DNA of 64,000 bases. It comes from Escherichia coli (GTDB taxonomy: Bacteria > Pseudomonadota > Gammaproteobacteria > Enterobacterales > Enterobacteriaceae). The stretch lies in the NCBI RefSeq assembly GCF_050920415.1, contig NZ_CP169309.1; one strand, written 5' to 3'. How positions within the stretch are numbered: position 1 is the first letter of the stretch; each line of letters opens with the position of its first letter. Below, in pieces: positions 1 through 2,389 of this stretch. The position numbers and the translations under genes were made by a program. The notes beneath the pieces were generated by a model. It was not told where the DNA came from. It saw only the letters and a list, made by a program, of their open reading frames with translations, and did not search any database.

Positions 1-2389
1 GCATCCGTTTCGGATCCCACGGTTTACCGTTGATATCCGCCGAAGCACGGTTGTAGAGTACGCGACGGTTGAGCGGCCACGCCCAGGCCCATCCCAGCGT
101 ATTCCCCAGACCGGACGGGTCGGAGTTATCGCGGTTAGCCATCTGGTTGCCTTGCTCTGTCCAGCTACCGGTGTAGATCCAGCAAGACGATGCGGTTGTA
201 CCGTCATCACGCAGATGCGCAAAGCTACTCAGTAACTGACCTTTCTTCGCAATCAGCACGCCATTTGCGTCATAGAGATCTTCCAGCGCATAGCCGTTGT
301 TCTCTTTTGCCACTTCGTCAGACTGCGGCTCGTGCGGCTGCTTGTAGTTCCAGCTCATCTTCATCAGCGGTTCTACGCCTTTACCACCTTCGGCCTGGTA
401 CAGCTCGCGCAAATGATGGTAGATACCCGCCAGAATTTCGCCGTCATTACGCGCTTCGCCCGGCGCATCCTGACCTTTCCAGTGCCACTGCAACCAGCGA
501 CCGGAGTTAGCGATAGAACCATCTTCTTCGGCAAAGCAGGTCGAAGGCAGACGGAATACTTCAGTCTGAATAGACGCCGGATCGACATCGTTCGACTCGC
601 CATGGTTCTGCCAGAAGGTGGAGGTTTCAGTCACCAGCGGATCGATAACCACCATGTACTTCAGCTTGCTCAGGCAGCTCACCACTTTGTTTTTGTCCGG
701 GAAGGACGCAACCGGGTTAAAGCCCTGGCAGAAATAACCGGTGACTTTACCTTCATCCATCATGTTGAAATACTTGATGACGTCGTAGGTCTGGTCCCAC
801 TTCGGCAGCCAGTCGTAGCCCCAGTTGTTCTCTTTCTGCGCAGCATCGCCGTAGAAAGATTTCATCAGGCTAACGAAGAACTTCGGATAGTTGCTCCAGT
901 AGTTCACCTGATCAGCCAGCGTCGCTTTCGGCGTGTTCGCTTCCAGATACGACTGCAAATCAACCTGTTTTTCTGACGGCAGCGTCAGATAACCCGGCAG
1001 GCTGGTAGAGAGCAGGCCTAAGTCAGTCAGGCCCTGAATGTTGGAGTGACCACGCAATGCGTTCACGCCGCCACCGGCCATACCCATGTTACCGAGCAGC
1101 AACTGGATCATCGCCATAGTACGGATGTTCTGCGCACCCACGGTGTGTTGGGTCCAGCCCAGTGCGTACAGGAAGGTGGTTGTGCGATCCGGCGCGCTGG
1201 TGGAGGCCAGCACTTCACACACTTTCAGGAAGTCAGCTTTTGGCGTACCGCAGATGTTTTCTACTACGTCCGGCGTGTAACGGGAAACGTGCGCTTTCAG
1301 CAAGTTCCACACACAGCGCGGATGAGTCAGTGTTTCATCGCGTTTCGCATAGCCGTTTTCATCGAACTGATAGTTCCAGGACGACTTATCGTACTGACGT
1401 TTTTCAGCGTCGTAACCGCTGAACAGACCGTCTTCAAAAGTAAAATCATCACGCACCAGCAGGCTGGCGTTGGTGTAATGCTTAACGTATTCGGCGTTGA
1501 TCTTGTTGTTTTCGATCAGGTAGCGCAAAACGCCAGACAGGAACGTAATGTCCGTACCGGAACGAATAGGTGCGTAGATATCCGCCACAGAAGCGGTACG
1601 CGTAAAACGGGGATCGACAACGATCAAGGTTGCATCGTTGTTGTTTTTCGCTTCCATCGCCCAGCGAAAACCGACGGGATGCGCTTCAGCAGCGTTACCG
1701 CCCATCACCATTACGACGTTAGCGTTTTTGATATCCACCCAGTGGTTGGTCATCGCACCGCGACCAAATGTTGGAGCAAGACTTGCTACCGTTGGTCCGT
1801 GTCAGACGCGCGCCTGGTTGTCTACCGCCAGCATCCCGAGGGAGCGGGCAAATTTCTGTGTCAGCATCCCGGTTTCGTTGCTGGCACCGGAAGCACACAG
1901 CATACCGGTAGAAAGCCAACGGTTTACCGTTACTCCCTGCTCATTCTTTTCAATAAAGTTAGCGTCACGGTCTGCCTTCATCAGCTTCGCAATGCGGGAG
2001 AATGCTTCTTCCCAGCTAATGCGCTGCCATTTGTCAGAACCTGGCGCACGATATTCCGGGTAGCGCAGACGGTTTTCGCTGTTGACGTAATCCAGCAATC
2101 CGGCCCCTTTCGGGCACAGCGCACCACGGCTTACCGGATGATCCGGGTCACCTTCAATGTGATAAATCGCTTCTCTGGCGTTTTTCGCGCCATCACCCAG
2201 GCTATACATCAATAGCCCGCAACCTACGGAACAGTATGTACAAGTGTTACGGATCTCTTTCGCGCGTAATAATTTGTAGTTTCGCGCCTGAGCCAGTGCT
2301 TGCTTCGGGGCAAAACCCAATGCCGCGACTGTTGTTCCCGCCATACCGCCCGCGCAGATTTTAAAAAATTGTCTGCGACTGACGTCCAT
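1..2389 (-). CDS. fdnG: Formate dehydrogenase-N alpha subunit (selenoprotein), 5' portion; gene runs off the window start. In-frame TGA (plus 1802..1804) read as selenocysteine
   Basis: Track ORF 1802..2389 starts MDVSRRQFFKICAGGMAGTT (twin-arginine signal) and ends ...VDNQARV at a TGA; the frame continues past it as HGPTVASLAPTFGRGAMTNHW (my translation). Synteny with yddG and narU-narZYWV. Confidence 0.9.
1760..1804 (-). promoter_or_regulatory. UGA selenocysteine codon plus presumed SECIS hairpin region immediately 3' of it on the mRNA
   Basis: TGA at plus 1802..1804 interrupts an otherwise continuous formate dehydrogenase frame; the SECIS structure itself was not folded. Confidence 0.5.

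Follow-up and report, generated by a model that had tools for sequence, protein, structure and literature searches.

The question raised by this locus is whether a TGA that interrupts the gene for the alpha subunit of formate dehydrogenase-N ends that gene or is read as selenocysteine. The gene lies at the very beginning of the window (by which we mean the whole stretch of 64,000 nucleotides of Escherichia coli DNA that was analysed, from contig NZ_CP169309.1). The features that define its reading frame are as follows.

1..2389, minus strand: coding sequence of fdnG, formate dehydrogenase-N alpha subunit, codons 1-796 of 1015, with the start ATG at 2389 and the remainder cut off at the window edge.
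1802..1804, minus strand: UGA codon 196, in all probability decoded as selenocysteine, aligned to the 'X' at position 196 of 1KQF.
2291..2389, minus strand: N-terminal twin-arginine (Tat) signal peptide MDVSRRQFFKICAGGMAGTTVAALGFAPKQALA, with the motif S-R-R-x-F-F-K in the translation; its extent and cleavage site are what we take them to be from general knowledge of FdnG.

Read on the minus strand, the sequence runs ...GCG CGC GTC TGA CAC GGA CCA..., with the T at 1804, the G at 1803 and the A at 1802. Translation of the frame from 2389 to 2 gives one stop symbol only, at codon 196, in the context ...VDNQARV-stop-HGPTVASLAPTFGRGAMTNHW..., and the 195-amino-acid open reading frame listed at 1802..2389 (minus strand) ends at this same TGA. 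Beyond it, 600 more sense codons follow in frame as far as the window edge, an open stretch with a chance probability of about 5e-12 given the local base composition. The initial annotation had placed the interruption of fdnG at these three nucleotides, had explained by it why the open reading frame was listed at only 195 codons, and had quoted a peptide with which the frame was said to continue; the direct reading and the translation agree with it on all of these points, and the early stop in the continuing frame that it named as counter-evidence does not occur.

The identity of the gene, also taken there to be fdnG, is borne out by several independent comparisons. The protein searches were run on the 796-residue translation with Cys placed at position 196. 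Against TIGR01553 (NCBIfam, formate dehydrogenase-N subunit alpha) this translation scores 1284.1 bits, with a cutoff of 814.2, from just 796 of the 1015 residues, and 4 of its 796 residues are not those of K-12 FdnG. It aligns without gaps over residues 1-796 to chain A of 1KQF (formate dehydrogenase, nitrate-inducible, major subunit), a single chain of 1015 residues in which a non-standard residue, entered as 'X', stands at 196 opposite the TGA; the TGA thus aligns to the Sec196 position of 1kqf_A, which is the molybdenum-ligand position. E. coli strain MFDS1022581 (NZ_CP169399.1) matches window positions 1-2700 with 100% identity, and its RefSeq annotation gives one fdnG CDS of 3048 nt spanning the TGA, followed by fdnH and fdnI; the translation of that CDS contains exactly one internal stop, at codon 196. 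Of 5426 complete E. coli genomes, 5425 cover at least 80% of the same 2700 positions. Within the window the operon is cut before fdnH, and it is in NZ_CP169399.1 that fdnH and fdnI directly follow. On the other side the neighbours are yddG and then narU-narZ, as for K-12 fdnG. The paralog FdoG is 77% identical to FdnG (782 of 1015 residues), and its gene adjoins fdhD, a context that the window gene lacks. It is this synteny, together with the near-identity to K-12 FdnG, that makes the gene fdnG rather than fdoG.

Between yddG and narU, at 3762-7603 (plus strand), lie genes for an intact porin of 366 amino acids, which PGAP calls ompC, and for two proteins with leucine-rich repeats, each about 420 amino acids long, whereas K-12 has only the short yddL and yddK there; K-12 yddL may be the remnant of a porin gene that has been retained intact in the window strain.

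For the TGA to be read as selenocysteine, the established bacterial mechanism would call for a SECIS element, and one is found directly behind the codon.

1749..1807, minus strand: full match to Rfam SECIS_3 (RF01989) over 59 nt, UGA included, with 84.3 bits (gathering score 63).
1759..1801, minus strand: whole SECIS hairpin, lower and upper helix, from the Rfam consensus structure and the minimum-free-energy folds.
1773..1790, minus strand: upper stem-loop GGUAGCAAGUCUUGCUCC, the core to which SelB presumably binds, nt 15-32 if the U of the UGA is taken as nt 1.

The SECIS_3 match is full-length (model positions 1-59), with E = 6.7e-20 in a scan of 3 kb and 1.4e-18 in a scan of the whole window. 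In minimum-free-energy folds of 45, 48 and 59 nt the hairpin occupies nt 6-46 from the U of the UGA (window 1799..1759). It starts 3-5 nt past the UGA, inside the coding region and with the frame still open. The upper stem-loop begins at nt 15, which is 11 nt after the UGA, in the Rfam structure and the minimum-free-energy fold alike, and consists of seven pairs with U17 bulged and a loop G23-U24-C25 closed by A22-U26 (in the window, G15 is at 1790, G16 at 1789, U17 at 1788, G23 at 1782 and U24 at 1781). The determinants published for the E. coli element are a spacing of 11 nt between the UGA and the upper stem-loop, a bulged U17 and a loop with G23-U24, with U17 and G23 as the contacts of SelB and the upper stem-loop alone as the essential part (PMC8659212). 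The more general bacterial model has an apical loop of 3-9 nt, an upper stem of 4-16 bp, a G within the first two positions of the loop and a distance of 16-37 nt from the UGA to the loop (PMC13188914); the window element, with its loop GUC (or AGUCU), its upper stem of 7 bp with one bulge and its 19 nt from UGA to G23, falls within that model.

The initial annotation had predicted just such a hairpin immediately 3' of the UGA, and had called the TGA the selenocysteine site. Both statements are upheld, the latter by the 'X' opposite the TGA in 1KQF and the SECIS_3 match 3' of it, the former by that match and by the identity of the window element to the SECIS elements of K-12 fdnG and fdoG, which answers the alignment it had proposed. 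The RNA fold that it had also proposed does give a SECIS-like hairpin after the UGA, although this is a weak test when taken alone. Only the extent has to be amended: a span of 1760-1804 had been given, of which the TGA end is right while the last paired base, at 1759, lies one base outside, and the Rfam match covers 1749..1807.

The weakness of the folding test is apparent from the energies. The fold has -11.9 kcal/mol for 45 nt and -17.4 for 59 nt, and stability beyond that of dinucleotide shuffles was not found at either length or in longer contexts (z = -1.18 at 45 nt and -0.77 at 59 nt, and about 0 in the longer ones). As the hairpin is no more stable than its shuffles, thermodynamics does not discriminate here, and it is the covariance model, together with covariation, that supplies the evidence.

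E. coli genomes carry the 59-nt element twice, once in fdnG and once in fdoG, and in 5432 of 5433 E. coli records its sequence is 100% identical. The sole variant is the fdoG copy of strain 97.3, in which a synonymous change from CAC to CAT turns a C-G pair into U-G. In the record of that strain (E. coli O68:H12, NZ_CP061758.1) the gene at 4633217-4636275, which adjoins fdhD and is therefore fdoG, has been labelled 'fdnG' by the annotation pipeline. It is the only copy of the element in that record, which is among the 5433 matching E. coli records, and so the strain may lack one of the two paralogs.

Genomes were also scanned, one for each species, for the pattern GCNCGNGTNTGACAYGGNCC, which fixes 15 and restricts one (Y) of 20 positions across the UGA and by which variation in the 5' side of the lower stem is removed. 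At least 120 loci were found, of which 119 were usable. Among the 119 usable matches listed, most encode HGPTV...GRGAMTN after the TGA, about 10 are of FdhF type and six look like chance matches. The FdnG-type matches listed reduce to 74 distinct 63-mers from diverse bacteria and make up, with the window, an ungapped alignment of 75 rows.

In these 75 sequences from the matches listed, 97.9% of the cells of the upper helix are paired, and four of its seven pairs show compensatory changes; GC, AU and CG are all seen at alignment pair 21-33, for instance, AU, CG and GC at pair 24-30, and GC and UG at pair 22-32. The covariation score of this alignment of listed matches was reached in none of 500 shuffles, and pairing in it falls from 90.5% to 27-49% once the 3' partners are slid by 1-3 columns. 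None of the 75 rows from the matches listed varies at column 20 (U17) or column 27 (U24), and column 26 (G23) is conserved in at least 90% of them. The compensating positions are mostly third positions of codons (Val/Ala, Ala/Leu), so that the RNA constraint is met by way of synonymous sites.

The lower helix behaves differently. It is about 84% paired in the Rfam register and equally so in the minimum-free-energy register, and essentially no compensatory double changes were found in either (again in the 75 sequences from the matches listed), so neither register is preferable. In the E. coli sequence the Rfam register has A-C and A-G mismatches at two pairs, while the minimum-free-energy lower stem is shifted by one position and has a bulged G. 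Such a weak signal fits the published view in which the upper stem-loop is the essential part.

The machinery for reading the codon would be encoded elsewhere in the genome. No tRNA gene and no sel gene was found within the 64-kb window, and the presence of these genes in the source genome must accordingly be judged from the species. Among complete E. coli genomes, selAB was found in 5425 of 5426, selC (tRNA-Sec) in 5424 of 5426 and selD in 5425 of 5426, so that the source strain almost certainly has selA, selB, selC and selD. A few matches fall on records classed as plasmids, namely those to fdnG and its SECIS (7-8 places), to selC (one) and to selD (two).

Here, then, an in-frame UGA stands at the Sec position of FdnG, and the SECIS hairpin behind it is conserved, shows covariation and presents the SelB determinants in canonical spacing; the mechanism established for E. 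coli leads us to hold, with very little doubt, that this would be the selenocysteine recoding site of E. coli fdnG. By that mechanism the upper stem-loop (nt 15-32, with the bulged U17 and the loop G23-U24) would bind the elongation factor SelB carrying Sec-tRNA(Sec) and GTP, the Sec-tRNA(Sec) being the product of selC, presumably charged through SelA and SelD. With the UGA in the ribosomal A site, the tethered SelB would compete with release factor 2 in delivering Sec-tRNA(Sec); the ribosome would then melt the hairpin and proceed to a subunit of 1015 residues for export by the Tat pathway. In the mature enzyme Sec196 would be a ligand of the molybdenum centre in the active site. A literature search for a paper dedicated to the fdnG SECIS returned reviews only, through which Berg et al. 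1991 and Liu 1998 are cited. As cited in PMC13188914, Berg et al. 1991 is the source both for the UGA encoding Sec in K-12 fdnG and for selenium-dependent read-through and SelB binding in that gene.

Three other explanations have to be set against the selenocysteine reading, and together they have in our judgment only a small chance of being right. The first is that the TGA is a genuine stop and that fdnG is a pseudogene here, or the source of a 195-residue fragment only. UGA is normally a stop codon, and the mechanical open reading frame call does end there, but this explanation has to contend with the 600 open codons in the same frame, with a downstream protein so little changed (the 4 residues of 796 by which it departs from K-12 FdnG), with the same TGA in essentially all of the 5425 E. 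coli genomes as well as in about 100 FdnG-type genes of diverse bacteria among the matches listed, and with a solved protein that is one chain of 1015 residues (1KQF). We regard it as exceedingly improbable. Hardly more can be said for a UGA that is passed independently of the hairpin, either by frameshifting or by a standard tRNA, near-cognate Trp or Cys. Near-cognate tRNAs do read UGA at a low level in E. coli, which lends that idea some general plausibility. The hairpin, however, is conserved, with the SelB determinants and with compensatory changes, the residue at 196 in 1KQF is a non-standard one, and the Sec machinery is present throughout the species; since the continuing frame is the zero frame, a frameshift is in any case unnecessary. 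The probability of this explanation, too, is close to nil.

The remaining alternative leaves the codon alone and concerns the conservation behind it, which might reflect gene conversion between fdnG and fdoG rather than selection on an RNA structure. The two K-12 genes share an identical run of 71 nt, their longest (gene positions 583-653, with the UGA at 586-588), amid a background of about 75%, and in codons 197-215 all 18 of the codons capable of synonymous change are identical, compared with 57% elsewhere (Fisher p = 9e-5). In window coordinates the identity around the Sec codon covers 1737-1807 (minus strand), reaching past the hairpin, and flanking 30-nt bins are at about 70-85%. Exchange within a genome could produce such a pattern, but Citrobacter, Enterobacter and Superficieibacter each carry the same 63 nt unchanged in their two paralogs, as does E. 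albertii in the one FdnG-type locus recovered from it. In more distant bacteria the sequence does vary, and varies in a compensatory manner in the upper helix; the two paralogs of Pseudomonas oligotrophica differ from each other. The identity of 63 nt across genera argues for purifying selection on the nucleotide sequence over within-genome gene conversion, which we reject on that ground as the main cause and consider very improbable.

The same invariance extends beyond the hairpin of about 43 nt, over 71 nt between fdnG and fdoG and 63 nt across the enterobacterial genera, and for this reason a second function, at the RNA level, might be proposed for nt 47-68 after the UGA, which lie 3' of the hairpin and encode GAMTNHW. 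If so, that function could be, for example, a more extensive contact with SelB or with the ribosome, or a shared regulatory target coupling both formate dehydrogenases. We think this very improbable; codon preference in a very conserved peptide, GAMTNHW, would be an alternative to it.

Several other elements of the window were seen in passing. A group II intron lies at 20437-22254 (minus strand), with a match to Rfam group-II-D1D4-2 at 22137-22254 (93 bits), domains V/VI matched by Intron_gpII at 20437-20512 (63 bits) and an ltrA reverse transcriptase/maturase open reading frame between the two matches (20514-21836 in the near-identical genome); the intron adjoins remnants of ISEc1 and IS256 transposases. 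At 23969-25282 the window has an insertion of some 1.3 kb. NZ_CP169399.1, although colinear elsewhere, lacks it, and the offset shifts there by 1336 bp. The insertion has imperfect terminal inverted repeats of 33 nt and two overlapping open reading frames, of 136 and 301 amino acids, which presumably correspond to InsC and InsD of IS2 (IS3 family), given their resemblance to these. Finally, the small RNA RydC is found at 59711-59774 (plus strand; Rfam RF00505, 90.5 bits, gathering score 48).

To return to the selenocysteine reading of codon 196, the UGA and SECIS of fdnG are an already known and annotated textbook feature, and the established picture of selenocysteine insertion in bacteria is left as it was. 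The value of the site lies mainly in annotation, where a naive open reading frame caller stops fdnG at codon 195 and the UGA and SECIS restore a selenoprotein of 1015 residues. It is also well suited for use as a positive control in genome scans and in the detection of recoding sites.

The closest known counterpart is K-12 fdnG (b1474) with its Sec196 and SECIS. Gene and codon position are the same, the 48 nt from the UGA on are identical, and the K-12 element likewise scores 84.3 bits; the 65 nucleotide differences between the K-12 gene and the window over 2388 nt all lie outside the element. The neighbourhoods correspond as well, with yddG upstream in both and fdnH-fdnI downstream, as seen in NZ_CP169399.1. 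The SECIS of E. coli fdoG (b3894, formate dehydrogenase-O) is identical over the UGA and 45 nt, has the same SECIS_3 score and also serves Sec codon 196, but fdoG is a different gene at another locus, set apart from the window gene by the adjoining fdhD and by the 77% identity of the two proteins.

More distant is the SECIS of fdhF (RF01988, SECIS_2), the experimentally dissected prototype. Assignment of the window element to this fdhF-type family was tried and rejected (28.8 bits against a gathering score of 70); K-12 fdhF itself is recognised by SECIS_2 with 87.1 bits. The host proteins differ in the position of the codon, with Sec at codon 140 in FDH-H and at 196 in fdnG, and the upper hairpin of fdhF has 17 nt and a 4-nt loop, GGUC, whereas that of fdnG has 18 nt (GGUAGCAAGUCUUGCUCC) and an extra A22-U26 pair closing a GUC loop. 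In both genes CACGG comes directly after the UGA, nt 15 opens the upper hairpin, and G15, G16, U17, G23 and U24 bear the same numbers; fdhF uses the same SelB-dependent mechanism (PMC8659212).
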